Origin: a virus | Direction: 5' to 3' (one strand) | DNA: 64,000 nucleotides | IMG/VR virus record: IMGVR_UViG_3300020185_004014 | Coordinates: 2,620-66,619 of that record | Shown here: positions 22,719-49,739 of the stretch, in pieces | Layout of the letters: each line of letters starts with the position of its first letter | Numbering within the stretch: the first letter of the stretch is position 1 | Translations under genes and position numbers: made by a program | Notes under the pieces: generated by a model | Told to the model about the DNA's origin: nothing | Database searches by the model: none | The model's input: the letters and a program-made list of their open reading frames with translations, nothing else

Positions 22719-22721
22719 ATT

Positions 22722-28805: not shown

Positions 28806-29441
28806 ATGAAAAATGTTTTAATGGCCCTTGGGTTGGCCTTAACTACCCTAGTTAGTTCTGCACAAACAACAGTTGTAGATATTATTGTAAATAGTGAAGA
28901 TCACACTTTGTTAGAAGCTGCAGTTGTAGAAGCCGGATTAGTTGAAGCTTTAAGTGATACAACAGGTACATTTACAGTATTTGCACCGACTGATAGTGCA
29001 TTTATTGCGTTAGCAACTTCACTTCAACTCGAACCTACTGACCTATTAGAGCTACAAAATTTAACAGATATTCTTTTATATCACGTACTTCCGGAAGTAT
29101 ATTTAGGAGAGGTGCTTCTTCCACCATCAATTAATTCTATGTTAACCACTTTACTCCCTGAAGAACCAATGTACATACAATCAGATGGCATGACTATTAC
29201 AATAAATGGCATAGCTTCAGTAACTGTGGCAGATCTTATTACTGACAATGGTGTTGTTCATGTTATTGATGCAGTTCTTGTACCTAATAGTACCAACTCA
29301 GTATCAGAGCTAGAAAATAAAATCCCACAAAATAATATTTACTACAATATTATGGGTCAAGAAATTGATAGTTATGATCAAATCCCTTTTAACTCCATTT
29401 ACATTAAAAATGGTGAAAAGTTCTTAAAGATCGAAAGATAA
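28806..29441 (+). CDS. fasciclin (FAS1) protein with signal peptide and T9SS-like C-terminal domain
   Basis: Signal peptide ending SSA-Q; TVFAPTDSAF, ILLYHV, NGVVHVIDAVL; tail YYNIMGQEI...IYIKNGEKFL. Confidence 0.85.
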   Translation: MKNVLMALGLALTTLVSSAQTTVVDIIVNSEDHTLLEAAVVEAGLVEALSDTTGTFTVFAPTDSAFIALATSLQLEPTDLLELQNLTDILLYHVLPEVYLGEVLLPPSINSMLTTLLPEEPMYIQSDGMTITINGIASVTVADLITDNGVVHVIDAVLVPNSTNSVSELENKIPQNNIYYNIMGQEIDSYDQIPFNSIYIKNGEKFLKIER

Positions 29442-29442
29442 T

Positions 29443-30216
29443 ATGCTTAAAAGGATAGAAGATTACGATAAAGTATTACCTGTATTAGAGGTATATCGAT
29501 GCGTGCAAAGTGAGGGCTCCCGTTTCGGGCGCCCCACTATTGCCGTTCGAACCACAGGATGCACTCATAGGTGCTACTTTGGTGAAGGTGGATGGTGCGA
29601 CAGTTGGTACACATCAATTCACCCTGAAAAAGGTACATTTACATTTAATGACATTATCAATATTTATGATGAGAACCCTCAAGTAAAAGAGATGATGTTA
29701 ACAGGGGGTTCACCAACAATGCATCCTGCTTTAGTAAATGAACTTACCCACTTTGCCAACGAAAGAGGAATCCTCATTACAATTGAAACCGAAGGGTCTC
29801 ACTTCGTGGAAACGGATTTTCCACTTGGTCTCATATCCCTTAGCCCTAAGTTTTCTAATTCTATCCCTGTTGTGGGTGTTACTACTCCCGGTGGTAAAGT
29901 TGTTGATGAAAGGTTTGTCAAACAGCATAACAAGTTTAGACTCCATTATGAAAATATTCAAAAAATGATCGACTTCCATAGTGACTATCACTATAAACCA
30001 GTGTGGGATGGAACTGATGAAGGTTTAGCCGAAATTGAAGAATTTAGAGTTAAAATGGATATTCCTAAGGACAAAACATTCGTAATGCCAGCAGGTGATA
30101 CAAGAGAAACATTAATTGAAATGTATCCCAAAGTATTTGAGATGGTAGCAGAGCATGGTTATAATATGACTGGTCGTGATCACATTATAGCATATGATAC
30201 AGAACGAGGAGTATAA
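29443..30216 (+). CDS. queE: 7-carboxy-7-deazaguanine synthase (radical SAM)
   Basis: VQSEG...GRPTIAVRTTGCTHRC...WCDS, LTGGSP, IETEG, SLSPK. Confidence 0.9.
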   Translation: MLKRIEDYDKVLPVLEVYRCVQSEGSRFGRPTIAVRTTGCTHRCYFGEGGWCDSWYTSIHPEKGTFTFNDIINIYDENPQVKEMMLTGGSPTMHPALVNELTHFANERGILITIETEGSHFVETDFPLGLISLSPKFSNSIPVVGVTTPGGKVVDERFVKQHNKFRLHYENIQKMIDFHSDYHYKPVWDGTDEGLAEIEEFRVKMDIPKDKTFVMPAGDTRETLIEMYPKVFEMVAEHGYNMTGRDHIIAYDTERGV

Positions 30217-30241: not shown

Positions 30242-30266
30242 AAAGGCACCTTTGGGTGCCTTTTTT
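30242..30266 (+). terminator. intrinsic terminator
   Basis: AAAGGCACC-TTTG-GGTGCCTTT followed by TTT. Confidence 0.85.
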
Positions 30267-30275
30267 AATATTTAT
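30267..30275 (+). promoter_or_regulatory. AATATTTAT motif (candidate late promoter)
   Basis: Directly after the terminator, upstream of ATG 30301. Confidence 0.4.
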
Positions 30276-30300
30276 TATAGAACGTTTTAAACAACAAGCT

Positions 30301-32277
30301 ATGAATAAATTATTTACTTTACTTTTACTGTTACTAACTCTTCCCCTTTTTGGACAAGATAGATGTGGAACCGATATATTATTTGAACAACAACTACAAG
30401 ATCCCAAATTTAAACGAAGCTATTTAAAACTTGAAAAATTAGCAAAGAAGGCAGAAGAAGCTAAAAAAGTTTTATCTATGCCTGATCTTCCCATTACAAT
30501 TCCTGTAATAGTTCATGTAATTCACTTTGGTGAACCTTACGGAACTGATTACCATTTACCTGTGGAATTTATACAAGAAGCTTTTGATAATTTAAATGAT
30601 AATTTTGCGGGAGAATTTAGTGATGACCCTACAACAAATACTCAAATAGACTTTTGTATAGCAAATGCTTCTACTGATGGAGAACCTATTGAAGGTATTA
30701 GATATTACGACTGGGATAATTTAGATATAGAGGAGTGGGATGCTACCGCTTTTTATAATAACCATATTGCAGTATCTAATTTATTGGGGTATGATAGGAA
30801 TAATTATTGTAATGTGTTTGTTGCCCCTTTTGGTAGCCCTTTAGGATTTGCTTACCTCCCCTCGTCTAATTTTGGGGTTTTTGTAGGTACTAATGCTTTT
30901 GGTATTACTAATACAGGGAATTATGGGTTAAATAGAACTTTAGTCCATGAAATGGGGCACTATTGTGGATTATACCACACATTCCATCAAACAAATACAT
31001 GTACTCCTACTAATACTAATTGTACATCACAAGGAGATAAAGTATGTGATACACCTATTACTACAGGAAACTTTGGGTGCCCCTTAAATGGGGGTGCTTG
31101 TGGGAATTCTTTAGTAGAGAATTTTATGGATTATACTAATGATGGATGTATGGATAGTTTTACTCAAGGGCAATCCTTAAGGATGTTATCACAACTAGAA
31201 ACCTTTAGACCAGGAGTGGTAAATAATAGTTTGGCATGTGGGGCTATTAATGGAGTAGATGTAGGGGTAAGTGGTTTAGCAGTACCTGATATTGGATGCT
31301 CTAATATTAAAGATATAACTTTTAATTTACAAAATTTTGGGGATAGTATAAGTGAAGCTACTATTAATTATTCTATAAATGGTGAAGATAATTTTATTAC
31401 TTGGATGGGTAATTTAGGCTTTGCTGAAAGTGAGATAGTGACTATACCTAATATTAATATGGGGTATGGTATTGTTGATATAGAGGTTAATGTAGAAGCA
31501 TTAGGTGACGTATATGAAGATAATAATATTAATACCCTCCAAATTAATAATTATGAAGGTACTTTTATAGACATTACTATAGAATTTGATGCTTTACCTT
31601 ATGGATTCGAATGGAGTCTATATAACTCAGATACTGAGGAATTAATTGATGAGGGGGGTTACTATGATAATGAGATATACGCATGTGAGGTTGAAACTAA
31701 CACCTATTGCTTAGAAGAAGGGAATTATGTTTTAGTTTTAGAAGACCTATTCGGAAATGGTATGTTTTACCCTTGTGGGGGTCCAACTTCTATTATAAAT
31801 GGTAATGATACTCTAAACACAGTAACAGGAAATTGGGGAGATGAAGAGATATTACCTTTTTATGTAGGTCCTCCTGACCCTTGCCCCCTATCAGATTGCC
31901 CTTGGGATGTAGATGGGAATGGGTACGTTTGGACTAATGACATACTTGTGATATTACAATATTATGGACTCGAAACAGAATGTAGTCCTTTTGATATTAA
32001 CCAAGATGGTGTAGTAGGAGTTGATGATATATTAGATGCTATTGCTAACTTCAACACAGAATGTACTACTGGTGAATTAACACCTGAAGGGGGATTTGAT
32101 GCTTTTTTGAAAAATGAACAAGAGGGTAAATTAGTAACAACTACTTTATATAACATGATGGGTCAAAAGGTCCAAGAGGGAAACCACCTAGACACAGGTA
32201 TATATATTATAGTTAAAGAATGGAATGTCCCTGAAGTGGGTGTTTTTGTTACTAAAGAAAAAATCTTCCGTGAATGA
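30301..32277 (+). CDS. secreted M43 (pappalysin/ulilysin-type) zinc metalloprotease with dockerin-like repeats and T9SS type A C-terminal domain
   Basis: Signal peptide; RCGT Cys-switch; IPVIVHVI; HEMGHYCGLYHTF; NFMDY Met-turn; DVDGNG/DINQDG EF-hand pair; LYNMMGQKV...TGIYII tail. Confidence 0.9.
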   Translation: MNKLFTLLLLLLTLPLFGQDRCGTDILFEQQLQDPKFKRSYLKLEKLAKKAEEAKKVLSMPDLPITIPVIVHVIHFGEPYGTDYHLPVEFIQEAFDNLNDNFAGEFSDDPTTNTQIDFCIANASTDGEPIEGIRYYDWDNLDIEEWDATAFYNNHIAVSNLLGYDRNNYCNVFVAPFGSPLGFAYLPSSNFGVFVGTNAFGITNTGNYGLNRTLVHEMGHYCGLYHTFHQTNTCTPTNTNCTSQGDKVCDTPITTGNFGCPLNGGACGNSLVENFMDYTNDGCMDSFTQGQSLRMLSQLETFRPGVVNNSLACGAINGVDVGVSGLAVPDIGCSNIKDITFNLQNFGDSISEATINYSINGEDNFITWMGNLGFAESEIVTIPNINMGYGIVDIEVNVEALGDVYEDNNINTLQINNYEGTFIDITIEFDALPYGFEWSLYNSDTEELIDEGGYYDNEIYACEVETNTYCLEEGNYVLVLEDLFGNGMFYPCGGPTSIINGNDTLNTVTGNWGDEEILPFYVGPPDPCPLSDCPWDVDGNGYVWTNDILVILQYYGLETECSPFDINQDGVVGVDDILDAIANFNTECTTGELTPEGGFDAFLKNEQEGKLVTTTLYNMMGQKVQEGNHLDTGIYIIVKEWNVPEVGVFVTKEKIFRE

Positions 32278-33809
32278 AAAAGTTAATATTAATTTTACTA
32301 CTTTTACCCTTTAATTTATTAGGTCAATGTGATGTAGCAATTACTGATGTAAACCTTAATACTTATGAGGTTACTATTGAAGTAATTAACTCTGAAGGAT
32401 GCACAGCTAATGGACCTGGTGGAGTAGATGGTGCTGTAACCATGTTACAGATAGGATACCACTTACCAGAAGCCATTGATCCTAATAATGAAGTTGTAGA
32501 TTTATTAACCCTACCTGATGCTCCTTGTAGCCCCCAATGGGTAGCCAATGGGTTCACTTTAGGAATGGTAGCAAACCAATACTCGGGATGGTGGTATAGC
32601 CCAACAGCAACCGTTACTTTTGACCCGGATTTAATGGGGGATGGTTTGGTAACAGGTGATGTGGTAGTAGTTCCACTTAATCCCCCTGGAGATTATGTAA
32701 ATACCCCATACCCCTTAGCGGAATGTGGTGATGATTTAATTGACTATTGGTTGTCTGAAGGTGAATGTATTGAATTTGTTGTATGGCAGTTAAATTATGG
32801 TGCTACTTGGCATACTGCTAATGGAGGATGGGCTGAAACTGCTAATGGCTACGTGCCTGACCCCTCTACTTACCAAGACCCTAACTGTAATAATTCATGG
32901 TACTTATGTAGAGATGAAAACCCAGGAGCAGCTGTAGCAAACCCTGATTTTTGTGAAACTATTTTAGACGAATGTAACGATCCCATAGCATGTAATTACA
33001 ATGAAAATTGGGGTGAACCTGGTGGGTTTTGTATATATTGTGATACACCTAATGGTGAAGAACTGTGTGAGGAGTATCAAAATGTAGGGGGTTATTGGAA
33101 TTTCTATTTTAATGCTTTTGACTGTTTAGAAGAAACAGAAAATGATACTATCTATATAGAATTACCTCCTGATACTATTATAGTTACTGAAATAGATACT
33201 ATTTATATAGAGTTACCTTCTGATACAATATATGAAATTGATACTCTTATAATTACTGTTACTGAAGTAGATACTTTATATATAGAATTACCTCCTGATA
33301 CTATTACTATAATAGAAATGGATACTCTTTATATAGAGTTACCCCCTGACACAATCATAGAAACTGAATTTATATTTGTAACTGATACTATAGTTGAAAC
33401 TGAATTTATAGTGTCAGTGGATACAGTTTATGTACTTTACACTGATACAGTTACAGTATATGAGTTTATAGAAATAAACTGTGAAACAGGATTACCTTGT
33501 AGTGAATTTAGAAATGAATGTAGTATTTACATACCAAATGCTTTCACCCCAGACAATGATGGGTATAATGATGCTTGGGAAATAGTGTTAGACCCTGAAT
33601 GTTGGACTGATGTTAAAGCTAAAGTAATAAGTAGATGGGGGGATGTTGTATGGGAATCTAACGATCCCAACAATTTAATTTGGAATGGCAGTTATGAAGG
33701 GGGAGATTATTATGTACAAGAAGAAATGTATATGTGGGTGTTTCAAGCACGAAAAAAAGGAACAACTGAAATTAAAGACTTAAAAGGATATATTACAGTT
33801 ATACGTTAA
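32274..33809 (+). CDS. secreted acidic Cys-rich protein with T9SS type B (gliding-motility-associated) C-terminal domain
   Basis: Signal peptide; CNDPIACNY; IYIPNAFTPDNDGYNDAW...SRWGDVVW...WNG...KGYITVIR. Confidence 0.88.
   Translation: MKKLILILLLLPFNLLGQCDVAITDVNLNTYEVTIEVINSEGCTANGPGGVDGAVTMLQIGYHLPEAIDPNNEVVDLLTLPDAPCSPQWVANGFTLGMVANQYSGWWYSPTATVTFDPDLMGDGLVTGDVVVVPLNPPGDYVNTPYPLAECGDDLIDYWLSEGECIEFVVWQLNYGATWHTANGGWAETANGYVPDPSTYQDPNCNNSWYLCRDENPGAAVANPDFCETILDECNDPIACNYNENWGEPGGFCIYCDTPNGEELCEEYQNVGGYWNFYFNAFDCLEETENDTIYIELPPDTIIVTEIDTIYIELPSDTIYEIDTLIITVTEVDTLYIELPPDTITIIEMDTLYIELPPDTIIETEFIFVTDTIVETEFIVSVDTVYVLYTDTVTVYEFIEINCETGLPCSEFRNECSIYIPNAFTPDNDGYNDAWEIVLDPECWTDVKAKVISRWGDVVWESNDPNNLIWNGSYEGGDYYVQEEMYMWVFQARKKGTTEIKDLKGYITVIR
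33144..33360 (+). repeat. four intragenic DT(I/L)YIELP(P/S)DT repeats (stalk)
   Basis: Units start at 33144, 33195, 33270 and 33321 (51-nt spacing within pairs). Confidence 0.85.
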
Positions 33810-33841
33810 CTTGATTTTTTAAATTTTTATATTTACTTTTA
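33810..33841 (+). promoter_or_regulatory. possible sigma70-type promoter for the thyX operon
   Basis: CTTG-N20-TACTTTTA. Confidence 0.4.
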
Positions 33842-33859
33842 TGGTAAATTATTAACTAA

Positions 33860-34510
33860 ATGAAAGTCACACTATTAAATGTTACCCCAAATGCTGAAGA
33901 CCACATTGTGGAGGTTGCACGTGTATCTAGTTCACGTAAGGATAAGAAAGCTAAACCGGAAGGCCTTTTATCATACCTGGTACGACACAAACACTGGTCA
34001 CCGTTTGAGCATGGGCACGCAACCTTCGAGATTGAAACTTCCAAAGCCATCGGTATCCAGCTCATTCGTCACCGTTCCTTTTCTTTTCAAGAGTTTAGTC
34101 AACGATATCAAGATGTTAATAAGCTAGAAGACATTTTTGAGCCAATTGAACTTAGAGCACAATGTGAAGACAACAGACAAAGCTCAACAGAAGTAATTGA
34201 CCCTTCTCTCCTTGCTTCAGGAGGTCCCATTAAAATCAGTACGATGATTGAAAATCACTTAACATCAGCACACAACTTATATAATAATTTATTAAAAGTG
34301 GGTGTTGCACGTGAACAAGCTCGTATGATTCTCCCACTTGCTACAACTACTAAAATTCATATGACAGGTAGTATTCGTAGCTGGATTCATTTTCTTGAAT
34401 TGAGGGATGATGAACATGCCCAAAAAGAAATTCAATTAATAGCTAAAGAAATCAAAAAACACTTTGCTAAAGAATTCCCAGTAATAGCTAAGGCCCTAGG
34501 GTACGTATAA
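33860..34510 (+). CDS. thyX: FAD-dependent thymidylate synthase
   Basis: HWSPFEH, RHRSFSFQEFSQRY, AREQARMILP, HAQKEI. Confidence 0.95.
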   Translation: MKVTLLNVTPNAEDHIVEVARVSSSRKDKKAKPEGLLSYLVRHKHWSPFEHGHATFEIETSKAIGIQLIRHRSFSFQEFSQRYQDVNKLEDIFEPIELRAQCEDNRQSSTEVIDPSLLASGGPIKISTMIENHLTSAHNLYNNLLKVGVAREQARMILPLATTTKIHMTGSIRSWIHFLELRDDEHAQKEIQLIAKEIKKHFAKEFPVIAKALGYV

Positions 34511-34512
34511 GC

Positions 34513-34956
34513 ATGAAACATTTATTTGTATTATTTAATTTAGTTTTTTTAGTTGTTATTGGTTGCCATTCCCAAAAAATAGGGTATGAGTTAAGAACAA
34601 ACGGTAAATCATACCTTACTATAAGTCATAAAATACACGATAAAGGTGGATTAGAATTAAGACACAAAACTGACTTAGGCGAAAACCGATTTACTTATAG
34701 ACACAATTTTAAAGTAACAGACAAAGTAGTGTTTAGTGTTCCACTTCACTACAAAAAAGAAAAAAACGAACCTACTTGGGAACCTCGTTTAATTTATAAA
34801 TTTGATAAATTTAAACTTTGGGTGCAACAAGAATTTTGGTTTGACGAGATATATAATTTAGCAATCGCAACCGACATACCTTATAAAAATTATGTTTACC
34901 GAGTTGGTTGGGATACATCAAACACAATACGATTTAGAATTTCAATTAAAATTTAA
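34513..34956 (+). CDS. small exported protein, probable outer-membrane beta-barrel
   Basis: Signal peptide; alternating amphipathic strands with aromatics; ends FRISIKI. Confidence 0.5.
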   Translation: MKHLFVLFNLVFLVVIGCHSQKIGYELRTNGKSYLTISHKIHDKGGLELRHKTDLGENRFTYRHNFKVTDKVVFSVPLHYKKEKNEPTWEPRLIYKFDKFKLWVQQEFWFDEIYNLAIATDIPYKNYVYRVGWDTSNTIRFRISIKI

Positions 34957-34965
34957 CACAACAAA

Positions 34966-35904
34966 ATGAGTTTATTAGCAATGGTAGGTTTTGCACTTGC
35001 CGGTTATTCAGTTATCGCTAACGATAGCGTTCAAACATTAGGCACTTGGATTGCCTCTAACAGAGAAAAATTTAAATGGTACGTAATGTGGGCTGCTGCC
35101 TCAGCAGTAATGATAGGCACCTTAGTTTATGGATGGGTTACATATGATGGAGATATTTCATTTGGAAGATTAACCAAAATACCATTCCAAGAAGTACAAT
35201 GGTATCATGCATTAGCTCCATTAGCACTAGTTGCTCTTACTAGAAAAGGTATTCCTGTATCCACTTCATTCCTTGTACTTTCAGCATTTGCTTCTACTTT
35301 TGTACTTGAAAAAATGCTACTTAAAAGTGTAGTAGGATATGGATTGGCAGCTATTGCAGCTTATACTTTATGGTTTATTGTTTCAAATTTCTTTAATGAA
35401 GACAAAGACATTAAAGAAGAAAATAAAAAATATTGGAGAATAGGACAATGGTTTACTACAGGTTTCCTTTGGTTCACTTGGCTTTCACATGATGTAGCTA
35501 ATATTGCTGTATTCCTCCCCCGCCAACTTTCAGTTGTAGAACTTATAGGAGTAATTACTTTCTTTACAGCTGGTTTAGGATGGATTTTCTACCAACAAGG
35601 GGGTAAAATTCAACAAATTGTTCTTGACAAACAAAACACTAAATATGTTAGATCAGCTACCTTTATTGATTTAGTGTATGCTTTCCTATTACTTTATTTT
35701 AAACAGATAAATAACATTCCTATGTCAACTACTTGGGTATTTGTTGGATTGTTGTGTGGTAGAGAATTAGCATTGAATACATACCTTACTAAAAAGGGTA
35801 ATCTTAAACAAGTATTCCCAATTGTTGCTAAAGACTTCCTTAAACTTTTAGTTGGACTGGTAGTATCAGTTGCAATTGTATTGTTAATACATTACGTTTT
35901 ATAA
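34966..35904 (+). CDS. PiT/PHO4-superfamily-like inner-membrane transporter
   Basis: Multi-TM; duplicated IANDSVQT / SHDVANIA and PVSTS / PMSTT motifs resemble PiT GANDxAN and PxSTT. Confidence 0.65.
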   Translation: MSLLAMVGFALAGYSVIANDSVQTLGTWIASNREKFKWYVMWAAASAVMIGTLVYGWVTYDGDISFGRLTKIPFQEVQWYHALAPLALVALTRKGIPVSTSFLVLSAFASTFVLEKMLLKSVVGYGLAAIAAYTLWFIVSNFFNEDKDIKEENKKYWRIGQWFTTGFLWFTWLSHDVANIAVFLPRQLSVVELIGVITFFTAGLGWIFYQQGGKIQQIVLDKQNTKYVRSATFIDLVYAFLLLYFKQINNIPMSTTWVFVGLLCGRELALNTYLTKKGNLKQVFPIVAKDFLKLLVGLVVSVAIVLLIHYVL

Positions 35905-35918
35905 TAAATTATCTTTTC

Positions 35919-35962
35919 ATTGCTATGGCAGTCACAGTCATTACTGGGTCTGTCATAGCAAT
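35919..35962 (+). other. long intergenic RNA hairpin
   Basis: ATTGCTATGGCAG pairs with CTGTCATAGCAAT (13 bp, one G-U), plus an inner CAGT/ACTG stem. Confidence 0.7.
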
Positions 35963-35983
35963 TATTTTAAAAAACAATAAAAA

Positions 35984-36457
35984 ATGAAACTAAGTAAAAA
36001 TCTATCACTAAGTGAAGTAATTAAATCAAACACTGCTTTACGTAGGGGTATTGATAACACTCCCACAGAAAGCCATATCAAAAACTTAAAGTATGTGGCT
36101 GAAAAAGTGTTCCAACCTATTAGAGATCATTTTGATGCCCCCATTTACATCTCAAGTGGCTATAGAAGTCAGGCACTAAATGAAGCTATTGGGGGGTCTA
36201 CCCGTAGTTTCCACTCCCATGGAATGGCACTTGATTTAGACCAAGATGATAGGAATCGAGGAGTTAGTAATGCTGATGTTTTCTTTTATATTAAAGAATG
36301 TCTTCCCTTTACTGAATTAATTTGGGAATTTGGTGATGAAAATAATCCTAATTGGGTTCACGTAGCAATTGCTAAAGGAAGGGAAGATGAAAAGAATACT
36401 AAAATTGCTAAAAAAGTAGATAATCGAACTATTTATAGTAAATTTGATTTAAAATAA
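35984..36457 (+). CDS. endolysin, peptidase M15 family
   Basis: SSGYRS, SFHSHGMALD, WVHV. Confidence 0.85.
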   Translation: MKLSKNLSLSEVIKSNTALRRGIDNTPTESHIKNLKYVAEKVFQPIRDHFDAPIYISSGYRSQALNEAIGGSTRSFHSHGMALDLDQDDRNRGVSNADVFFYIKECLPFTELIWEFGDENNPNWVHVAIAKGREDEKNTKIAKKVDNRTIYSKFDLK

Positions 36458-36460
36458 TAC

Positions 36461-36483
36461 AGGGGGGACGTAAGTCCCCCTTT
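36461..36483 (+). terminator. GC-rich hairpin with GUAA tetraloop (terminator or 5' stabiliser)
   Basis: AGGGGGGAC-GTAA-GTCCCCCTTT. Confidence 0.7.
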
Positions 36484-36533
36484 GTGTCACATAAATACAA
36501 TCCAATTTAATTTTTAACCAAAAACAAAAACAA

Positions 36534-39272
36534 ATGAGACAAATCTCAAAATTTGCTTTAGTGGGAGTTCTTTGCATGATCTCTTCACTATCCTTTGCCC
36601 AAATTACGGGTAAAGTCACTGATGCTACTACAGGCGATGGCCTACCTGGAGCAACAGTTTTAATAGAAGGTAACACTACTGGTATTTCAACCACTGTAGA
36701 TGGTACCTTTAAACTAGATGCTACACCAGAGGGAACTTTGGTGGTCAGCTTTATCGGTTATGAAACTGCTAATTTGACAGCTAAAACTGATATGGGAAAT
36801 ATTTCCTTACAACCTACAGCATTAGGCTTAGCAGCAGCTTCAGTTGTTGCTAATGTAATTGATGTAGCTAAGGTTAGAGAAACCCCTGTAGCTGTATCTA
36901 CAATCTCCCCTCAAGAGATTGCACTAAAAGTAGGAAACCAAGAGTTTCCTGAAATTATGAATTCCACCCCTGGTGTTTATGCTACAAAGCAGGGAGGTGG
37001 ATATGGTGACTCACGTATTAGTTTACGTGGTTTTGACCAACGTAACACATCTTTCCTTATTAATGGTCAACCTGTTAATGATATGGAAAATGGGTGGGTT
37101 TATTGGTCCAATTGGCAAGGTCTAACTGATGTTGCCTCTGGTATCCAAATCCAAAGAGGTTTAGGTGCTTCTAGACTCGCAGTGCCTTCTGTTGGAGGTA
37201 CTGTTTCTATTTTCACTAAAGCTGCTGATAAAGAACAGGGTGGTAGTGTTTCCCAAACCATTGGTAACGATGGTTACACTAAAACTTCTGCTAACTATAA
37301 TAGTGGTAAAAATGAAAACGGATGGGCTACATCTTTCTTGTTAAGCAAATGGGCTGGTAACGGCTATGTTGACAACACCTCAGGAGAGGGTTGGACATAC
37401 TTTGGTGCTGTAGGTTATGAACCAGAAGGATCAAAACATGCCCTTAATTTATCTGTTTTAGGAGCAGGTCAGTGGCACCATCAAAGAGATGTTTGGGTAT
37501 CAATCCGTGACGCTCAAACTTTTGGAGAACAAAATAGTGATGGTATTAATACCCGTTGGAATTCAAATGGAGGTACTTTAAATGGTGAGGAGTTTAGCAT
37601 GCGTAGAAATTTCTATAATAAACCACTTGCTACTTTTAACTGGGATTGGGATATTAATGAAAATCTAGCCCTCAATACTTCACTTTACGGCTCAGCTGGT
37701 AGAGGTGGTGGAACAGGTCCTCGTGGTAAAAATTACAATGTCCACCCTTATAGAAAGGATTTGTATGAATTTATGTACGAGGATAGTATTACACAATTCC
37801 GTAATGAGGATGGTACTATTGATTTTGATGCTATTGTTGCTGATAACCAAGCGGGTGCCAGTGCTGGATATGGAACAGGTGATTCATTGTTAATGGGTAG
37901 TGATTTTTATGGCCAGTTAATTGGTTCTAATGGTTATAATGAAAATGGTGTTTACAAAAGTGGTATGGTTCGTAGAGCTTCTATGAATTCACATGACTGG
38001 GTAGGTGCAATTTCAAACCTCGAATATGATAAAGATAATTGGAGAGCATCTATTGGTTTAGATCTTCGTAGATATAAAGGATATCACTATCGTACTATTA
38101 ATAACTTAATGGGATTTGATGCTTATTACTCTACAGGTAATGATAACAGTAACGGTCAATTTGTTAATACAACTGTTGAAGCTAGCCCATTCCAAAACAC
38201 CGGTTTAAACGGTCCTAAAATTGATTACTACAATGTTGGTAATGTTGGATGGGCTGGTGTCAATGGTTTAGTTGAATACAGTGATGACGATAAATTAACA
38301 GCAGTTGTCCAAGCTGGTCTATCTAACCAATCTTTCCAACGTGAAGATTATTTCGACCAAGCACAAAACCCCATCTCAGAAACTGCCAACTTAACTGGAG
38401 GGTATCTCAAGGGAGGTGCTAACTATAACTTAGATGAGGCTAGTAACGTATTTTTTAATGCCGGCTTTATCTCACGTCAACCTAACTTTGGAGGTGTTTT
38501 CCCAAGCTATGCTAACAATATTAATGACGAACTCCAAAATGAAGAAATTACATCATTTGAGTTAGGATATGGTTATAATAGTGATGTATTAACACTTAAT
38601 GCTAACGTTTATGCTACTACATGGGGTAATAGGTTCCGTTCATTATCTTTGACAAACGCTCAAGGTATTGATGGATTTGCCCAATTTAGGGACATTGACG
38701 TGCAGCATAATGGTGTTGAACTAGAAGGCGTTTATCGTCCAACTAACCGTTTAAAAGTTAAAGGTGCTCTATCTATAGGTGATTGGAGATACACTAAGAA
38801 CTTTGAAGCTGAATTGTTTGATGACCAACAGCAATCTATTGGTACTGGTACTCTTTACACTGAAGGTGCTAAAGTTGGTGATGCTGCTCAATTTGTAGCG
38901 AATGCCGGTGTAGATTATAGAATCGGAAATAATATTAATGTTGACTTAGCCTATAGATTTGTAGATGGGTTATACGCTGATTATGGAATTACTGATTCTG
39001 ATTTTGCTAATCCTGATAACTTAGGTGCTTTGAAATTACCTTCATATGGTTTGGTAGATTTGGGTGCAACAGCTCGTTTTAATCTGTTTGACCACGATGC
39101 TTCATTCAGAGTTAACTGTAATAACTTACTAAATACAACCTATATCGCTGAGTCTAATACTAACATCCATGCTGATGAAAATTCAACTACATGGAACGGT
39201 GTTGACACACAGAACTTTGTATGGTTTGGATTTGGGCGCACTTGGAATGCTTCGTTGAAATACACATTCTAA
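36534..39272 (+). CDS. TonB-dependent outer-membrane receptor (Bacteroidota type)
   Basis: Signal peptide; ITGKVTDA...LPGATV...SFIGY N-terminal domain; plug ETPVAVS...PGVY...LRGF; C-terminal GRTWNASLKYTF. Confidence 0.93.
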   Translation: MRQISKFALVGVLCMISSLSFAQITGKVTDATTGDGLPGATVLIEGNTTGISTTVDGTFKLDATPEGTLVVSFIGYETANLTAKTDMGNISLQPTALGLAAASVVANVIDVAKVRETPVAVSTISPQEIALKVGNQEFPEIMNSTPGVYATKQGGGYGDSRISLRGFDQRNTSFLINGQPVNDMENGWVYWSNWQGLTDVASGIQIQRGLGASRLAVPSVGGTVSIFTKAADKEQGGSVSQTIGNDGYTKTSANYNSGKNENGWATSFLLSKWAGNGYVDNTSGEGWTYFGAVGYEPEGSKHALNLSVLGAGQWHHQRDVWVSIRDAQTFGEQNSDGINTRWNSNGGTLNGEEFSMRRNFYNKPLATFNWDWDINENLALNTSLYGSAGRGGGTGPRGKNYNVHPYRKDLYEFMYEDSITQFRNEDGTIDFDAIVADNQAGASAGYGTGDSLLMGSDFYGQLIGSNGYNENGVYKSGMVRRASMNSHDWVGAISNLEYDKDNWRASIGLDLRRYKGYHYRTINNLMGFDAYYSTGNDNSNGQFVNTTVEASPFQNTGLNGPKIDYYNVGNVGWAGVNGLVEYSDDDKLTAVVQAGLSNQSFQREDYFDQAQNPISETANLTGGYLKGGANYNLDEASNVFFNAGFISRQPNFGGVFPSYANNINDELQNEEITSFELGYGYNSDVLTLNANVYATTWGNRFRSLSLTNAQGIDGFAQFRDIDVQHNGVELEGVYRPTNRLKVKGALSIGDWRYTKNFEAELFDDQQQSIGTGTLYTEGAKVGDAAQFVANAGVDYRIGNNINVDLAYRFVDGLYADYGITDSDFANPDNLGALKLPSYGLVDLGATARFNLFDHDASFRVNCNNLLNTTYIAESNTNIHADENSTTWNGVDTQNFVWFGFGRTWNASLKYTF

Positions 39273-39292: not shown

Positions 39293-39326
39293 AGAAGGCT
39301 ACTCCCTTAACGGGGAGTAGCCCTCT
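39293..39326 (+). terminator. hairpin after the TonB receptor gene
   Basis: GGCTACTCCC-TTAACG-GGGAGTAGCC; weak U-tract. Confidence 0.65.
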
Positions 39327-39346: not shown

Positions 39347-39655
39347 ATGATTAAAATTTTTGAAGAAAGTACCCTCCAACAAGATTTGGATACAAATCAA
39401 AAACTTTACCTTTATTTTTATTCTACTAGCTGTGGACCTTGTAAAATAACAACCCCCTTAATAGAAGAATTTGGGAATACTACTAATAATATAGTATATC
39501 CTATAGCCTCCTTTGAAGGAGAGGAATTACAAAAACAGCTAAATGTAGCAGCCTACCCTAGTATAATTGTAATAAAAAATAATAAGGTAGTAAAAGGAGC
39601 AATTGGACAAGAAGAAGTAAAAAAAATTATAGAAAATGACCCCAGCAATAAGTGA
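39347..39655 (+). CDS. thioredoxin-like protein
   Basis: FYSTSCGPCK, cis-Pro AAYPS. Confidence 0.85.
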   Translation: MIKIFEESTLQQDLDTNQKLYLYFYSTSCGPCKITTPLIEEFGNTTNNIVYPIASFEGEELQKQLNVAAYPSIIVIKNNKVVKGAIGQEEVKKIIENDPSNK

Positions 39656-40148
39656 AAAAGAGTTAGACTTTAAATTAAAGTTAATCGCTAAAAAAATAAA
39701 TGACGAACATAAAGATGATCCTGTTCCTGTAGTACTTGTTTGTATTTTAAATGGAGGATTTATGTTTTTTAGTGATTTAGTAAAACAAATCACGGTACCA
39801 ATTGAAATAGATTTTATTAGGTGTAAGTCTTATCTTGGAAGACAACAAGGTGATTTAGTTATTACTAAAGATCTAGAAACTAAAATTAAAAACAAACATG
39901 TTTACCTTGTGGATGATATCTTAGACTCAGGGAATACTATGAAAGCGGTATCTAAATTTTTGCAAGTAAAAGAACCTAAATCTATTACCCCAATTGCGGC
40001 CATTTATAAAGAAAACGGGGATTTTGATAAAGTACTTCATATATTACATCAACCAACTGATTCCACATCTAACCCATGGTATATAGGGTATGGTATGGAT
40101 GATGAAAATGGACATAATAGAAATTTAAGCACAATTTATATAATTTAA
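39636..40148 (+). CDS. hpt: hypoxanthine/guanine phosphoribosyltransferase
   Basis: CILNGGFMFFSDL, VYLVDDILDSGNT PRPP motif, IGYGMD. Confidence 0.9.
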   Translation: MTPAISEKELDFKLKLIAKKINDEHKDDPVPVVLVCILNGGFMFFSDLVKQITVPIEIDFIRCKSYLGRQQGDLVITKDLETKIKNKHVYLVDDILDSGNTMKAVSKFLQVKEPKSITPIAAIYKENGDFDKVLHILHQPTDSTSNPWYIGYGMDDENGHNRNLSTIYII

Positions 40149-40844
40149 ATGGAAAATAAAAGAAGAAAGTTGCACAACGATATTGAGTGTGTGCCTGTGG
40201 GTTATGCCAATGGATCAGCAATGGATCGACCCCTTACATCTCATGAAAAGGAGGTAATGATTAATGAAGCAGCAGATGCTTATAGTAAATTTTTAGATGC
40301 CTTAAAATGTGATTGGAGAAACGACCCTAATTCAATGGAAACACCTAAAAGGGTAGCTAAAGCATATGTAAATGACTTATGGGCGGGTAGGTATAACGGA
40401 TTCACAGATATTACGTCTTTTCCTAGTGATGGTTATGACGGTATTGTCATTGAACGTAATATTCCCCTTACTAGTATGTGTTCCCATCATCACCAAACTA
40501 TTAGAGGTGTTGTTCATATTGGTTACGTCGCAGGAGCCGAAGGAAGAGTAATTGGTTTATCTAAACTTAACCGAATTGTAGAACATTTTGGAAGAAGGGG
40601 AGCAATCCAAGAACAACTCACCTCAGCTATCCATGGGGGTGTAGAAAAGGTATGTGAAGGTAATTTAGGAGTTATTGTTACTATAGTTGCTACCCACAAC
40701 TGCGTAAGTTGTAGAGGCATTAAACATTCAGGAGCAGCTATGGTAACAACTAAAGCATCTGGTGTATTTAGAGATGATACAAATCAAGCACGTAAAGAAT
40801 TTTTCGATAGCTTGAAAATTAACAATGGAGGACATCAAATTTAA
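40149..40844 (+). CDS. folE: GTP cyclohydrolase I
   Basis: ETPKRVAK, SMCSHH, GLSKLNR, QEQLT, HNCVSCRG. Confidence 0.95.
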   Translation: MENKRRKLHNDIECVPVGYANGSAMDRPLTSHEKEVMINEAADAYSKFLDALKCDWRNDPNSMETPKRVAKAYVNDLWAGRYNGFTDITSFPSDGYDGIVIERNIPLTSMCSHHHQTIRGVVHIGYVAGAEGRVIGLSKLNRIVEHFGRRGAIQEQLTSAIHGGVEKVCEGNLGVIVTIVATHNCVSCRGIKHSGAAMVTTKASGVFRDDTNQARKEFFDSLKINNGGHQI

Positions 40845-40849
40845 AAGTT

Positions 40850-41368
40850 ATGAATAAACAGTTAGAATTATTTACAAAAGTTCCATTTGTGGACGAGGTA
40901 GAAGAGTTTAATGATTTAATGAATAAACCCAATAATTATGAACCTATTATACCCGAAACAAAAGAATGGGAGTTCGTTTACAACTTCGTATTGGAAGAAC
41001 TTGAAGAATATAGAGAGGCATGTCAACGAGGTGACATCGTTGAAGTTTTGGACGCTTTGTGCGACATTGCTTATGTCTCATTGGGGAATGGAACTATGCT
41101 ACACGGTCTTAAGGATAAAATTTGGCCCGCCTATCAAGAAGTCCAAGCCTCTAACTTATCAAAAGCTTGCTCGACTGAAGATGAAGCACGAGCAACAGTT
41201 GAAAAAAGATCCGAAGAGCAAGGTGAGTCCTGCCACTATGAAAAGGTTGGTAGTAAGTATATTGTTTATCGCACGCGTGACCGTAAAGTAATGAAAAATA
41301 TTAACTACTTTAGACCAGACCTCAAACAGTTTTTTACTGAAAATGAAATAAAAAATGTCACTACGTGA
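40850..41368 (+). CDS. MazG-like all-alpha nucleotide pyrophosphohydrolase
   Basis: EELEEY, EVLDALCDIAYV, EVQASNLSK, KVMK...YFRPDL. Confidence 0.8.
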   Translation: MNKQLELFTKVPFVDEVEEFNDLMNKPNNYEPIIPETKEWEFVYNFVLEELEEYREACQRGDIVEVLDALCDIAYVSLGNGTMLHGLKDKIWPAYQEVQASNLSKACSTEDEARATVEKRSEEQGESCHYEKVGSKYIVYRTRDRKVMKNINYFRPDLKQFFTENEIKNVTT

Positions 41369-41681
41369 TTATGAGGGTTGGAGACGTTACTCTAAATGGA
41401 AGCGTGAAAACCGTGATGCTTGGGAACGTAGTATTAAAAAACAAGAACAAATGAGTGATGGACTAACAGAAGCTTTAAAAGGAGCTAAGTATACACGGCA
41501 TAAAGCCATACCCGTAAAAAATATCAGCCAAATGCCAGACCAAAAATGGCATCGTATAGTTTCATTTGTTAAGTCTGGGGTACGTATATTGGGGTATTGT
41601 TTTATTCCTTTTAATTTAATAATCGCCACAATTTTACTTATAATTAGTGAAGTTGTAGGCATAATCGAAGAATTAGTATGA
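41355..41681 (+). CDS. small membrane protein
   Basis: C-terminal hydrophobic HRIVSFVKSGVRILG...GIIEELV. Confidence 0.6.
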   Translation: MSLRDYEGWRRYSKWKRENRDAWERSIKKQEQMSDGLTEALKGAKYTRHKAIPVKNISQMPDQKWHRIVSFVKSGVRILGYCFIPFNLIIATILLIISEVVGIIEELV

Positions 41682-41929
41682 AAAAATTATTATACTTTAG
41701 CGCGCCATGGTGCTCACCTTGTAAAACACTAGGCCCTATCATGGAACAAGTAAGCCAACAAGTTAACGTTAAAAAAATTAATGTTGATGATAGCCCTGAA
41801 ATGGCATCTCATTATGGAGTACGAAACGTCCCCACTGTAATTTCAATCACAGAACTTGGGGAAGAAAAAGGTAGACTTGTAGGAGTACAATCAGGTCAAA
41901 CCTATATCGATATGTATAATCAAATTTAA
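41678..41929 (+). CDS. trxA: thioredoxin
   Basis: FSAPWCSPCK, INVD, VRNVPT. Confidence 0.85.
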   Translation: MKKLLYFSAPWCSPCKTLGPIMEQVSQQVNVKKINVDDSPEMASHYGVRNVPTVISITELGEEKGRLVGVQSGQTYIDMYNQI

Positions 41930-42992: not shown

Positions 42993-44678
42993 ATGTTTAA
43001 GAAATGCTACGCTGAGTATGCTGGTAAGAACCAGTATAAGATACACCTATGGGAGGAGAATGATTACAATATTATTCCTTACCGCGTCCCCGCTTATATA
43101 GAGTGTTCTGAAAATGAAGCCGAATACCAAGGTCTAAAGGGTGAATGGTTAAAAAAGACTTATAACTGGGATAAAGACAATCCACGTCTTCATTTTCATG
43201 ATATGCCTGCTTACCAAAAATTTCTTATTGAAAAATATGGGGTTGATGATAATATATCTAAAGGACACCGTGAAGTATTTTTTGATATAGAGATTGAAAT
43301 GGGTGGGGCACTTACAGAAGAATATATCCAATCTGCTCCCAAACCAGTAACATCAATTGCTTGGTATGATAAAACCCCTGATGAATGGGTTATCCTTATT
43401 TTAGATAAGAAAGGCCAAATTAAACATACTAAGGGGCATAAAGAAATCATCCCTGTAGCTACTGAAGAAGAACTATTAGCCACATTTATTGAGAAGTTTA
43501 GAGAAATTAATCCCGATATTCTCGTAGGGTGGAATAGTGACTATTTTGATATTCCTTATCTCTATTTTAGAATTTGTAATGTGTTAGGGGAGGAATTTGC
43601 TAATGCTTTATCTCCTATAGATGTTGTAAAGGATGAAAGTCAATGGAACCGCAATGGATGGCTTAACATTGCGGGAGTTGAATCACTAGACTATATGAAA
43701 TTACATAAAAAGTTTAGTTTTAGAGATGAACCATCAATGAGGTTAGATGCCATTGGAGAAAAATATGTTAATTTAGGTAAGATTGAGTACGATGGTAATC
43801 TAGATAGACTATTTGAAGATGACATCCAGAAGTTTATTCAATATAACTTTAGGGATGTAGAAATACTTAAAGAACTTGATGAAAAATTTGAATATATTGG
43901 TCTAGTAAAAAACCTATCACATAAGGGTAAACACAACTATGGGGAGGTATATGCTAACACCAAAACCCAAGACGGAGCCATCTCAGCTTACTTGCTAAGC
44001 CAGAACATTATTCCTCCTTCTCGGGATAGAAATCCTATATTTAAAAAAGGGTATGCTGGTGGGTATTTATTTTGCCCCCAGGCGGGTCTTTATAAGTATA
44101 TGTTTGATGAGGATTTAACTTCATTGTATCCTTCTATTATTATGTCCCTTAATATAGGTAAAGAAACTTATGTAGGTAGAATATTAGATTTATTTGATGA
44201 TAGAAATAATCGTTTAGGATTAAATGATTTACAAGCAATGGATCCTGATAAAAAATTATGTGTTGAAAATCCCCAACGCAAACAAACTTATATTGAGTGT
44301 GGTAAAATTATTGAAACTATAACAACTAATAACCTAGCCATATCAGCAAATGGGGTAATGTTTAGAACTGATAAACAATCAGTGCTGTCAACCATACTTG
44401 CTAAATGGTTTGATGAAAGAGTAGAATACAAAGGTTATATGAAAAAAGCATACAAATCTGGTAATAAAGAAAAGGGTGCATTTTGGCACCAACGTCAACA
44501 CACCATGAAAATTTTGTTGAACAGTTTGTATGGTGCAACCGCCCTTGGTAGCTTTAGATATGGAAATGTAATTTTAAGTGAAGCTATAACTTTAAGTGGT
44601 CAACGCATTATTCAAGAGAGTGCTTTATGTGCCAATCGACACATGAACAAAGTAATTAAAAATGAAATAACATTATGA
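42993..44678 (+). CDS. family B DNA polymerase, N-terminal part (3'-5' exonuclease, motifs A and B)
   Basis: FFDIE, GWNSDYFDIPY, YNFRDV, YAGGY, DLTSLYPSII, KILLNSLYG, ITLSGQ; no DTDS. Confidence 0.92.
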   Translation: MFKKCYAEYAGKNQYKIHLWEENDYNIIPYRVPAYIECSENEAEYQGLKGEWLKKTYNWDKDNPRLHFHDMPAYQKFLIEKYGVDDNISKGHREVFFDIEIEMGGALTEEYIQSAPKPVTSIAWYDKTPDEWVILILDKKGQIKHTKGHKEIIPVATEEELLATFIEKFREINPDILVGWNSDYFDIPYLYFRICNVLGEEFANALSPIDVVKDESQWNRNGWLNIAGVESLDYMKLHKKFSFRDEPSMRLDAIGEKYVNLGKIEYDGNLDRLFEDDIQKFIQYNFRDVEILKELDEKFEYIGLVKNLSHKGKHNYGEVYANTKTQDGAISAYLLSQNIIPPSRDRNPIFKKGYAGGYLFCPQAGLYKYMFDEDLTSLYPSIIMSLNIGKETYVGRILDLFDDRNNRLGLNDLQAMDPDKKLCVENPQRKQTYIECGKIIETITTNNLAISANGVMFRTDKQSVLSTILAKWFDERVEYKGYMKKAYKSGNKEKGAFWHQRQHTMKILLNSLYGATALGSFRYGNVILSEAITLSGQRIIQESALCANRHMNKVIKNEITL

Positions 44679-44938
44679 GTTTAAAACCACAATCAATACG
44701 AAATAACGTAAAAATTCTCTGTAATGATGATCCTATCTCTAAACAGGAAATTATAGATATGAGTGCCCTTTGGAGTGAAAAACAAATCATTTTCTTTAAA
44801 AAAATGTTAAAACAGGGAGGTACTGCTAAAATTAATAATACAAAATTTAAAATTATTATTGATGATCCTATTTTAACCTCTAGAGGAGAAAAAGATGGAG
44901 GTATAATACAAGTTCCTGACGCTGATACTAGATTTTAA
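44675..44938 (+). CDS. hypothetical protein between the two PolB parts
   Basis: 87 aa; ATGA and TAATG overlaps with both polymerase ORFs. Confidence 0.7.
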   Translation: MSLKPQSIRNNVKILCNDDPISKQEIIDMSALWSEKQIIFFKKMLKQGGTAKINNTKFKIIIDDPILTSRGEKDGGIIQVPDADTRF

Positions 44939-45864
44939 TGATACACTTAGAAGAAACCCCGTGGTGGATTTGTGATGAGGGTGATTATAACTTCTGTGCC
45001 TATGTGGATACAGACTCTAATTATTTTAATGCTGAACCTCTTTTAAAACATTTATATCCTAATTTTGAGGAAATGAGTGATGAAGAAAAAGATAATGTAT
45101 TAGAACAAGTAGCACTCAAGTACCAAGACATTATCACAGCTGATTATGATAGATTGGCTAGGGATTGTTTTAATATACAAGAGCACCGTCTTGAAATGAA
45201 AACTGAGTGCGTTATTCGTTCTGCATATTTTAGAGCTACCCGTAGATATGCACAGTGGATAACTAAACAAGAGGGTATTGCTAAAGAATCACTTGATGTT
45301 AAGGGACTTGAATTTAAAAAAGCTAATTTTCCCCCTATATTTGGAGAGTTTTTTAATGATATCTTAGAACAGATTCTAAAAGGTGCTGAACAAAAACATA
45401 TTGATAAGTTAATTATGGATTTTAGAAACCATGTTATGTCTAAAGATTTAGATATTGTCCAACTAGGCAACCCAACATCAGTAAAAACACTAAATGAGTA
45501 TGTAGTTCGTAAACCCCGAGCAGGAGAAGTGATGACTGAATTAAAAAAAGGTGCTCCTGTTAATGTCAAAGCAGCAGTAAAATATAATGATTTACTTAAC
45601 TTTTGGGGTATAAAAGACCATAGTGAAATAGTACAAGGTGATAAAATCAAATGGATATACCTAAAAGATAACCCTTACAAAATTGAACAATTAGGATTCC
45701 TAACCTTTGACATGCCAGATAAAATTCGTACATTCCTTGAAGACCATGCTGATAGGAAGAAATCATTTGAGACTATACTACAAAGTAAGTTAGAAAATTT
45801 TTATCGTGATCTTGGTTGGACCCTTAACTTGAACCCTAATATTAACAAATTCTTTAGTTTCTAA
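44938..45864 (+). CDS. family B DNA polymerase, C-terminal part (motif C and thumb)
   Basis: AYVDTDS, RRYA, VKGLE, GDKIKWIYL, C-terminal FFSF clamp-binding-like motif. Confidence 0.9.
   Translation: MIHLEETPWWICDEGDYNFCAYVDTDSNYFNAEPLLKHLYPNFEEMSDEEKDNVLEQVALKYQDIITADYDRLARDCFNIQEHRLEMKTECVIRSAYFRATRRYAQWITKQEGIAKESLDVKGLEFKKANFPPIFGEFFNDILEQILKGAEQKHIDKLIMDFRNHVMSKDLDIVQLGNPTSVKTLNEYVVRKPRAGEVMTELKKGAPVNVKAAVKYNDLLNFWGIKDHSEIVQGDKIKWIYLKDNPYKIEQLGFLTFDMPDKIRTFLEDHADRKKSFETILQSKLENFYRDLGWTLNLNPNINKFFSF

Positions 45865-47829: not shown

Positions 47830-47830
<1 letters not shown>
47576..47830 (+). CDS. hypothetical protein
   Basis: 84 aa, coupled to groES. Confidence 0.65.

Positions 47831-49739
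<1,909 letters not shown>

Follow-up and report, generated by a model that had tools for sequence, protein, structure and literature searches.

A 6-oxopurine phosphoribosyltransferase-family gene conserved beside GTP cyclohydrolase I in phages with predicted DpdA3-type 7-deazaguanine DNA modification

We analysed a 64,000-nucleotide stretch of viral DNA (the window; positions 2,620 to 66,619 of IMG/VR record IMGVR_UViG_3300020185_004014) that carries adjoining genes for an HPRT-type 6-oxopurine phosphoribosyltransferase (PRTase), a GTP cyclohydrolase I (FolE) and a MazG-like nucleoside triphosphate (NTP) pyrophosphohydrolase. The source contig is a 66.6-kb linear viral sequence with an estimated completeness of 49%; every sizeable open reading frame (ORF) of the window lies on the + strand, and the nearest cultured relatives are Flavobacterium phage vB_FspM_immuto (immuto) and the Cellulophaga phage phiST group. 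Its cargo genes for fasciclin, SusC-like and type IX secretion system (T9SS)-sorted proteins point to a host among the Bacteroidota. The TAA stop codon of the HPRT gene (39636-40148, +, 170 aa) directly abuts the ATG of folE (40149-40844, +, 231 aa, type IA), and 5 nt separate folE from the MazG-like gene (40850-41368, +, 172 aa), so that HPRT, FolE and MazG form one tight operon in a fragment of a phage of the DpdA3-type 7-deazaguanine kind. An earlier, sequence-only reading had placed the three ORFs at exactly these coordinates, with HPRT ending at 40148, folE starting at 40149 and a 5-nt gap before the MazG-like gene, and had seen a thioredoxin gene on either side; all of this was confirmed on the sequence, and PF00085 matches at 39347-39655 and 41678-41929 identify both thioredoxins. 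It had also listed queCDE, a DpdA-like gene, a ribonucleotide reductase (RNR) and two polymerases. The first three are present, as judged by profile matches and by comparison with immuto DpdA3, whereas the polymerases are in fact one family-B enzyme split over two ORFs (42993-44678 and 44938-45864).

The HPRT protein matches Pfam Pribosyltran with 78.7 bits and NCBIfam TIGR01203 (HGPRTase) with 119.8 bits, the latter below the 150-bit equivalog cut-off, so that the scores support membership at family level and do not certify equivalent function. By sequence it is closest to E. coli and Salmonella Hpt (E 1e-22, ∼31% identity). Its AlphaFold2 model (pLDDT 88.4) has a type I PRTase fold with a hood and superimposes in a Foldseek search on E. 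coli Hpt (PDB ID: 5KNX) with E 4e-17, a TM score of 0.87 and a root mean square deviation of 2.1 over 172 columns; across solved Hpt (1G9S, 1J7J, 5KNX) and Gpt (XGPRT, 1A95) structures the TM score is 0.85-0.89. With these enzymes it shares the phosphoribosyl pyrophosphate (PRPP) motif, the Ser-Tyr loop, the acidic triad and a Lys or Arg at the O6 position; it differs from them in being phage-encoded, in its ∼31% identity and in the remodelled hood of its subgroup. The window protein carries VYLVDDILDSGNT and KSY, which align with the E. coli Hpt motifs. Among 62 distinct phage sequences, LNG, S65, Y66, D94, D97, G99, T101 and R162 are invariant in all 62, and the O6-binding Lys position is K or R; D97 aligns with the Asp that we take, from the human and T. 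cruzi literature on residue roles, to act on purine N7. LNG was considered as a diagnostic motif and dropped, the aligned solved HPRTs having R, T or K there. In distant members of the phage clade the hood is canonical (YGFxIxDEWVVGYG), whereas in the subgroup of the window's HPRT it is remodelled (QPTDSxFDPWYIGYG), the window copy reading TDSTSNPW. By family, predicted fold and motifs we regard the protein as a genuine 6-oxopurine phosphoribosyltransferase.

The clade to which this HPRT belongs is abundant in metagenomes, with 1479 clusters at E <= 1e-10, the best 120 of which are all at least 78% identical. There was no PHROG match, and isolate phage records yielded 18 weak HPRT-type matches. 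A pattern scan of 185,579 species genomes returned no close cellular homologue; the four close matches all lie on contigs of metagenome-assembled genomes, and hence no cellular donor was identified.

FolE, whose reaction opens the preQ0 pathway, is identified by PF01227 (140.1 bits, cut-off 27), by phrog_2197 and by the CSHHH and NCVSCRG motifs in its translation, and is 62% identical to immuto FolE; it scores below the NCBIfam equivalog cut-offs (136.9 versus 181.6). The remaining pathway genes lie upstream on the + strand, with the DpdA3-family guanine transglycosylase homologue (26701-27519; phrog_19058) followed by QueC (27516-28313), QueD (28313-28771) and QueE (29443-30216), all three Que proteins being called by profile matches as members of the preQ0 pathway and being 62-69% identical to their immuto counterparts; a fasciclin-domain gene (28806-29441, +) intervenes between QueD and QueE. 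No Pfam TGT (PF01702) match was obtained on the whole record, and DpdA was therefore recognised only through comparison with immuto DpdA3, to which it is 41% identical (E 1e-57); identity to the CP220 homologue is 35%, and tblastn matches fall in immuto, 14 Campylobacter phage records and phiST-like records. On these comparisons the window's DpdA is related in sequence to its DpdA3 counterparts in immuto, CP220 and phiST. Neither QueF nor DpdN nor an AAA_28 kinase was found within reach here (at a genome completeness of ∼49%), so that the final base of this phage is probably preQ0 or a derivative of it. The start of dpdA is overlapped by orf166 (26204-26704), which accompanies it in 35 of 81 loci. 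This ORF shows neither a family match nor a P-loop and may encode a partner of DpdA.

The third protein of the block matches PF01503 (PRA-PH; 36.6 bits, cut-off 21.3) and phrog_671 and is conserved far above its neighbours, with 54-94% identity across the set and 82% to immuto. E49, E50, E53, D68 and D72 (EExxE...DxxxD) are invariant in 28 sequences. A sequence search against solved structures gave nothing significant; the fold search alone matched, the AlphaFold2 model (pLDDT 91.8) being closest in Foldseek to DR2231 of D. radiodurans (E 1.9e-4, TMq 0.56-0.60, 17-21% identity). Based on profile, motif and modelled fold, the protein can be placed in the all-alpha NTP pyrophosphohydrolase superfamily (MazG/HisE/dimeric dUTPase). 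It has the all-alpha fold in common with DR2231 (PDB ID: 2YEU, 5HVA), to which the phage protein adds a conserved C-terminal extension made of a helix and a β-hairpin. The DR2231 structures matched were solved with dUMPNPP and dUMP, and a review describes DR2231-type enzymes as MazG-like hydrolases able to cleave dUTP (PMC5122711). We found neither a trimeric nor a dimeric dUTPase (PF00692, PF08761) in the window record, in three larger relatives (one of them 100% complete) or in immuto, and the phages checked do encode thymidylate synthases; the protein may thus simply be the phage dUTPase. A candidate second dUTPase-like gene in phiST was dropped, since CGPG_00068 is gp039 by gene order. A dUTPase or house-cleaning enzyme is the most conservative reading, and a plain dUTPase, which the sequence-only reading had counted among the outcomes that would speak against it, is a live possibility.

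The position of the gene leaves open a role specific to the pathway, for instance hydrolysis of (d)GTP or of a deaza-NTP, because its place in related phages is fixed: in the immuto clade it stands between FolE and DpdA3, and 66 of 77 loci have it 160-271 nt upstream of the latter. In phiST the same post-FolE place is taken by an all-alpha pyrophosphatase of another Pfam family, with no pairwise similarity between it and the window's protein. The MazG family as such occurs in 208 isolate records, many of them Microbacterium or Corynebacterium phages, and Tenacibaculum phage PTm1 has a member in no que context, as seen in the neighbourhood of that one record.

The arrangement of the PRTase and cyclohydrolase genes was followed in two samples of viral contigs. 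The first consisted of the best 80 of 90 viral-contig relatives of HPRT (37-90% identity). Where at least 900 nt of sequence lay downstream, the next gene after HPRT was a GTP cyclohydrolase I in 60 of 68 loci (53 FolE1, 7 FolE2); in the other eight, the cyclohydrolase was 0.7-2.2 kb further downstream in four, upstream in three and absent in one. At least one folE1, que or dpdA gene accompanied HPRT in 79 of the 80 loci, and the remaining locus, L049, is deduced to be one with FolE2, which gives a pathway gene in all 80. Of the 56 loci that extend 3 kb or more downstream, the MazG-like gene follows in 52; DpdA is encoded in 38 of the 43 that extend 8 kb or more upstream. The co-occurrence of hpt with folE, que and dpdA that the sequence-only reading had proposed to check is therefore borne out, and independence of hpt from que is clearly contradicted for this HPRT clade.

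The second sample did not depend on the PRTase, the query being immuto DpdA3 (80 contigs, 65-100% identity). The gene order in these loci is QueD, QueE, ..., PRTase, FolE, (DUF4494), MazG, DpdA3, DpdN, AAA_28, QueF, PolA, with MazG in 77/80 and AAA_28 in 74/80. A PRTase gene precedes the cyclohydrolase in every one of the 71 loci with at least 700 nt upstream, and the distance between the two is at most 300 nt in 66 of these. Fifty-nine of the 71 PRTases represent the short immuto type and the remaining 12 the HPRT type, the latter 44-49% identical to the window's HPRT. The immuto type is Gpt-like, matching NCBIfam PRK09177 (xanthine PRTase, E 2.4e-16) and, in the PDB, Sulfolobus GpT-1/2 and E. 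coli XGPRT. As far as sequence goes, both types belong to 6-oxopurine families with canonical PRPP and acidic motifs, and two such families alternate in one slot. The partner changes as well, FolE2 (PF02649) being unrelated to FolE1, so that both members of the pair have been non-orthologously replaced while the arrangement was kept. FolE2 stands in the FolE1 slot in several separate sub-lineages of both phage clades (for example L023, 10510-11469; L050, 10583-11611; L063, 10554-11558; also L117 and L132). In the window itself, HPRT still adjoins FolE despite 9.4 kb of cargo that separates the pair from QueE. Two further genes recur around the pair: a DUF4494 protein of ∼66 aa often lies between the cyclohydrolase and the MazG-like gene (37/80 immuto-like loci and 13 loci of the HPRT set; for example L023, 11601-11801, and L001, 20547-20744), and a 4HBT-family thioesterase gene lies between QueE and HPRT in 16 loci (for example L036, 3794-4198), immuto likewise having an annotated thioesterase.

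In other phages a PRTase-like domain and FolE are joined in one polypeptide. With the Gpt-like protein as query, 40 isolate records matched; for 14 (Vibrio 7, Stenotrophomonas 3, Pseudomonas 2, Sphingomonas 2) the matching region is part of a coding sequence whose annotation reads GTP cyclohydrolase I. The one fusion protein compared pairwise with the immuto PRTase was gp47 (297 aa) of a Stenotrophomonas phage: its residues 1-117 align with the whole of that protein (27% identity, E 9e-13) and keep the RGG, DDIIDSGDT and FPWE motifs, and PF01227 takes up residues 118-296. Vibrio phage VpKK5 orf32 (300 aa) has the same build, with the PRTase match in its first part and PF01227 at 117-293. It is the pairwise match to the immuto PRTase that assigns the N-terminal domain as PRTase-like, matches of this domain to XGPRT in the PDB being weak (E 0.29-0.4). 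The fusion clusters are ordered QueE, QueC, QueD, fusion protein, DpdA, PolA, and when the fusion protein's 80 best relatives on viral contigs are compared, the in-frame extension is present in 50, the other 30 being FolE alone. In the Vibrio, Stenotrophomonas, Pseudomonas and Sphingomonas phages (L172, 4971-5864; L173, 4998-5900; L175-L220) the PRTase-like domain of ∼117 aa is not called by Pfam and has been ignored in annotations. The order dNMP kinase, FolE, annotated xanthine PRTase is found in Brevundimonas phage MaInes, and the search with the Gpt-like protein also gave a PRTase match in its relative StAshley.

Conserved adjacency, displacement on both sides of the pair and domain fusion together strongly support the wiring of a guanine-type PRTase to the deazaguanine pathway, which the sequence-only reading had suspected from one genome. 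The published phage gene set comprises FolE, QueD, QueE, QueC, an optional QueF with tailoring enzymes, and DpdA. The window resembles the DpdA3 clusters of immuto, phiST and CP220 in having FolE, QueD, QueE and QueC with a DpdA3 homologue (PMC10516641). Its PRTase, FolE, MazG order is the same as in immuto, from which it differs in having an Hpt-type rather than a Gpt-like PRTase and a split PolB rather than PolA. The 2023 Nucleic Acids Research paper by Cui, Hutinet et al. defines DpdA3, reports complete replacement in CP220, phiST and immuto, and concludes that all these modifications are post-replicative (PMC10516641). Its main text mentions no PRTase or salvage, PurN giving the sole occurrence of 'ribosyl', though its supplementary tables might list a PRTase (PMC10516641); the main text of the 2019 Nature Communications paper, as distinct from its supplementary gene tables, likewise has no phosphoribosyl, salvage or fusion. 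A full-text literature search returned nothing relevant that links phage deazaguanine or que genes to a phosphoribosyltransferase. The PRTase-cyclohydrolase pair is real and conserved, and makes an apparently undescribed accessory of a known system.

The block is best explained as a co-transcribed supply module for DpdA3-type 7-deazaguanine DNA modification. We propose, with a probability of roughly 60%, that the PRTase returns guanine from base exchange or host breakdown to GMP, and so to GTP for FolE. Each exchange by DpdA would release one guanine per deazaguanine inserted, and degraded host nucleic acid is a possible extra source. HPRT would convert the free guanine and PRPP to GMP, host kinases would raise GMP to GTP, and FolE, translated from the next codon, would commit that GTP to preQ0 through QueD, QueE and QueC. 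Since one GTP is spent per base inserted, such a guanine loop would be stoichiometrically closed, and removal of guanine could in addition pull a reversible exchange towards completion, which suggests that removal and recycling help to sustain high levels of replacement. Recycling is the better fit of two models put forward in the sequence-only reading, given the presence of DpdA, the 6-oxopurine families of the PRTases and their link to a GTP-consuming FolE; the other, a pre-replicative route, has found no direct support.

Several observations weigh against guanine recycling. The guanine source and the PRTase substrate are predictions from sequence, fold and gene context, and GMP is two kinase steps away from GTP, so that neither adjacency nor fusion can mean channelling. 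The base-binding hood is remodelled in the window's subgroup ('TDSxFDPW' instead of 'GFxIxDEW'), and the window's own hood carries N at a position where D is found in 54 of 62 relatives. Some 20-25 residues, which from alignment comparison we take to be the flexible loop, are missing from the short Gpt-like forms and the fused ones, whose role may lie in regulation and not in catalysis. Because the contigs sample a small number of phage lineages redundantly, the counts given above speak for the constancy of the PRTase-cyclohydrolase arrangement and not for many independent events. No PF00156 protein is encoded by three phages that carry a DpdA3 homologue (CP220, Chryseobacterium phage MA9V-3 and Bacillus phage BSTP12), and the system as such can thus do without the PRTase. 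The Gpt-like PRTase gene of phiST lies ∼20 kb from FolE, where it adjoins a dNMP-kinase-like gene, and PA5oct-like jumbo phages have a gpt match with no tie to que, as judged from the match listing alone.

It is also conceivable, if unlikely, that HPRT, the MazG-like protein and the thioredoxins have no specific link to the pathway and are generic nucleotide-supply genes whose synteny was inherited. The block does sit among RNR, ThyX, thioredoxins and a polymerase, the MazG family is widespread (208 isolate records) and in PTm1 stands outside any que context, the gpt match of the PA5oct-like phages shows no evident que context in the match listing alone, and the MazG-like protein, no other dUTPase having been found in the records scanned, may simply be one. 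Against inherited synteny stand a slot upstream of the cyclohydrolase that is kept while Hpt is exchanged for Gpt and FolE1 for FolE2, a pair that is intact despite 9.4 kb of cargo inserted before it, fusion of a PRTase-like domain to FolE in unrelated phages, and a pathway gene at the HPRT locus in 80/80 cases (best 80 of 90). A different matter is whether deazaguanine enters DNA through the nucleotide pool, either by a TubE-like PRTase or by DpdA3 exchange on dGMP with a linked kinase. We regard this as a minority possibility; if true, the PRTase/cyclohydrolase/pyrophosphatase block would lie at the heart of a new pre-replicative route by which a genome becomes fully substituted. The window shares with the Streptomyces tubercidin and toyocamycin clusters a purine-type PRTase together with GTP cyclohydrolase I (GCH-I), QueD, QueE and a nucleotide hydrolase, the combination of PRTase with GCH-I, QueD and QueE being characteristic of the TubE/ToyH pathway; the likeness compared here is one of gene content, and those clusters have no transglycosylase and make free nucleosides (PMC6112128). 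As reported there, TubE is a purine-type PRPP transferase whose gene is clustered with those for a Nudix hydrolase and for homologues of GCH-I, QueD and QueE; it specifically ribosylates 7-carboxy-7-deazaguanine (CDG), which yields the CDG ribonucleotide (PMC6112128). This precedent keeps alive a scheme in which the phage PRTase joins CDG or preQ0 to PRPP, kinases and RNR yield the dNTP, the MazG-like enzyme removes dGTP and the polymerase incorporates the analogue. RNR, PRTase and an NTP pyrophosphatase are indeed all encoded here, the hood of the window's HPRT subgroup is remodelled, and the isolates immuto and phiST are reported to be completely replaced (PMC10516641). We nevertheless consider the scheme quite unlikely, as DpdA, present in 38 of the 43 loci reaching 8 kb upstream, would be superfluous, CP220 is without a PRTase and yet reported 100% replaced, and two unrelated 6-oxopurine PRTase families would both need a change of substrate. 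In addition, the acidic residue for N7 is invariant, the 10 kb around HPRT yielded no nucleotide kinase family in any of the 80 loci, and DR2231, whose fold comes closest to that of the MazG-like protein, was crystallised with dUTP/dUMP analogues and is not a known dGTPase. Absence of a nucleic-acid insertion enzyme, by which a recent preprint sets such pathways apart (bioRxiv 10.64898/2026.04.15.718813), does not apply to the window, which has DpdA.

The other conceivable route through the pool would have the MazG-like enzyme convert dGTP to dGMP, DpdA3 swap the base on the nucleotide, a linked kinase and the polymerase follow, and the PRTase salvage the guanine. What speaks for it is the company that DpdA3 keeps. 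In the DpdA3-sampled loci the order FolE, MazG, DpdA3, (DpdN), AAA_28 recurs at the frequencies given above, the NadR-kinase-like P-loop protein AAA_28 consistently following DpdA3 (immuto, L001, 21516-23520; L090-L169). CP220 DpdA3 (L083, 7862-10355) has an HD-plus-P-loop protein (HD and AAA_33) just upstream, and gp057, an AAA_28 homologue 32% identical to that of immuto (E 9e-20), on its flank; in phiST a hypothetical gene and then one for an AAA_18 protein stand between FolE-MazG and DpdA3. The AAA_28 protein could be a modified-nucleotide kinase or an ATPase partner of DpdA3. Cells infected with CP220 are reported to contain ADG nucleoside in their cytoplasm, and reconstitution of DpdA3 in E. 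coli to have failed (PMC10516641). Exchange on the nucleotide nonetheless seems to us very unlikely. The window clade has no kinase near DpdA: none surrounds it in the window or appears among the 21 neighbourhood clusters, and an AAA_28 homologue is absent from the window record and from two of four larger relatives, the two carriers having it far from the cluster (with the window record counted in, two of five). A PF02223 kinase candidate was rejected, the matches being weak and on the clamp loader. TGT-family enzymes are generally known to act on polynucleotides, DpdB is the ATPase helper of bacterial DpdA, and an ATPase that assists exchange in DNA is an equally good reading of the P-loop partner, just as a dUTPase is of the MazG-like protein. 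The published view, moreover, is post-replicative (PMC10516641).

The MazG-like gene also invites comparison with Z-genome phages. MazZ of cyanophage S-2L is specific for guanine nucleotides, and the fold nearest to that of the window's protein is DR2231, not MazZ. The S-2L triad of PurZ, MazZ and DatZ likewise sets base synthesis beside dNTP-pool enzymes of MazG and HD type, DatZ being a dATP triphosphohydrolase, within a route described as pre-replicative (PMC8342488). Phage 7-deazaguanine genomes are a model for the rewriting of viral DNA chemistry against restriction. The comparison adds to the published gene set a widely conserved accessory, a 6-oxopurine PRTase whose gene is linked to that of GTP cyclohydrolase I or even fused with it, and the pair is a useful marker of such systems in the annotation of metagenomes; the pyrophosphatase and kinase-like genes that travel with DpdA3 bear on how some phages reach 100% replacement.

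At its upstream end the operon is preceded by an inverted repeat with 10-bp arms (GGCTACTCCC / GGGAGTAGCC; 39297-39322, +, read from the sequence), a 6-nt loop and a T-rich 3' side. It separates the TonB-receptor cassette from the operon, whose boundary it probably marks; a terminator scan did not call it, and an Rfam scan found no riboswitch or other family near the operon. The first gene of the operon encodes thioredoxin 1 (39347-39655, +, 102 aa, CGPC motif, PF00085 47.3 bits) and overlaps the HPRT gene by 20 nt. Downstream of the MazG-like gene lie orf108 (41355-41681, +), a small conserved ORF with a hydrophobic C-terminus whose cluster occurs in 32 of 81 loci and which has no match in Pfam, NCBIfam or PHROG, and the gene for thioredoxin 2 (41678-41929, +, 83 aa, CSPC motif, PF00085 54.3 bits), probably the reductant for the phage RNR. 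That enzyme is of class I, its small and large subunits being encoded at 21738-24431 on the + strand (PF00268 222.6 bits; PF02867 339.4 bits). Only thioredoxin 2 is widely conserved next to the block, its cluster lying beside it in 51/81 loci against 8/81 for thioredoxin 1. The split family-B polymerase (42993-45864, +) has its DNA_pol_B and exonuclease domains in the first ORF and matches phrog_262, positions 565-852 of which are covered by the second; an 87-aa ORF lies between the halves, and relatives show the same split and the same small ORF, the cluster occurring in 21 loci.

The ∼9.4 kb of cargo inserted between QueE and the HPRT operon (30256-39272) encodes an M43 metallopeptidase-like protein (673 aa), a CHU_C/T9SS-sorted protein (511 aa), ThyX, a lipoprotein-like orf147, a PHO4-like membrane protein, an M15 peptidase and a 912-aa SusC-like TonB-dependent receptor (CarboxypepD_reg, Plug and barrel). 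A complete outer-membrane receptor is unusual for a phage; the relatives L007 and L022 have it too (79-92% identity). Further downstream, at 47830-49739 and 63626-63918, the window carries genes for GroES/GroEL, Hsp20, several glycosyltransferases and a GH16 hydrolase, and three tRNA genes (Leu-TAA, Arg-TCT and Met-CAT) lie at its end.

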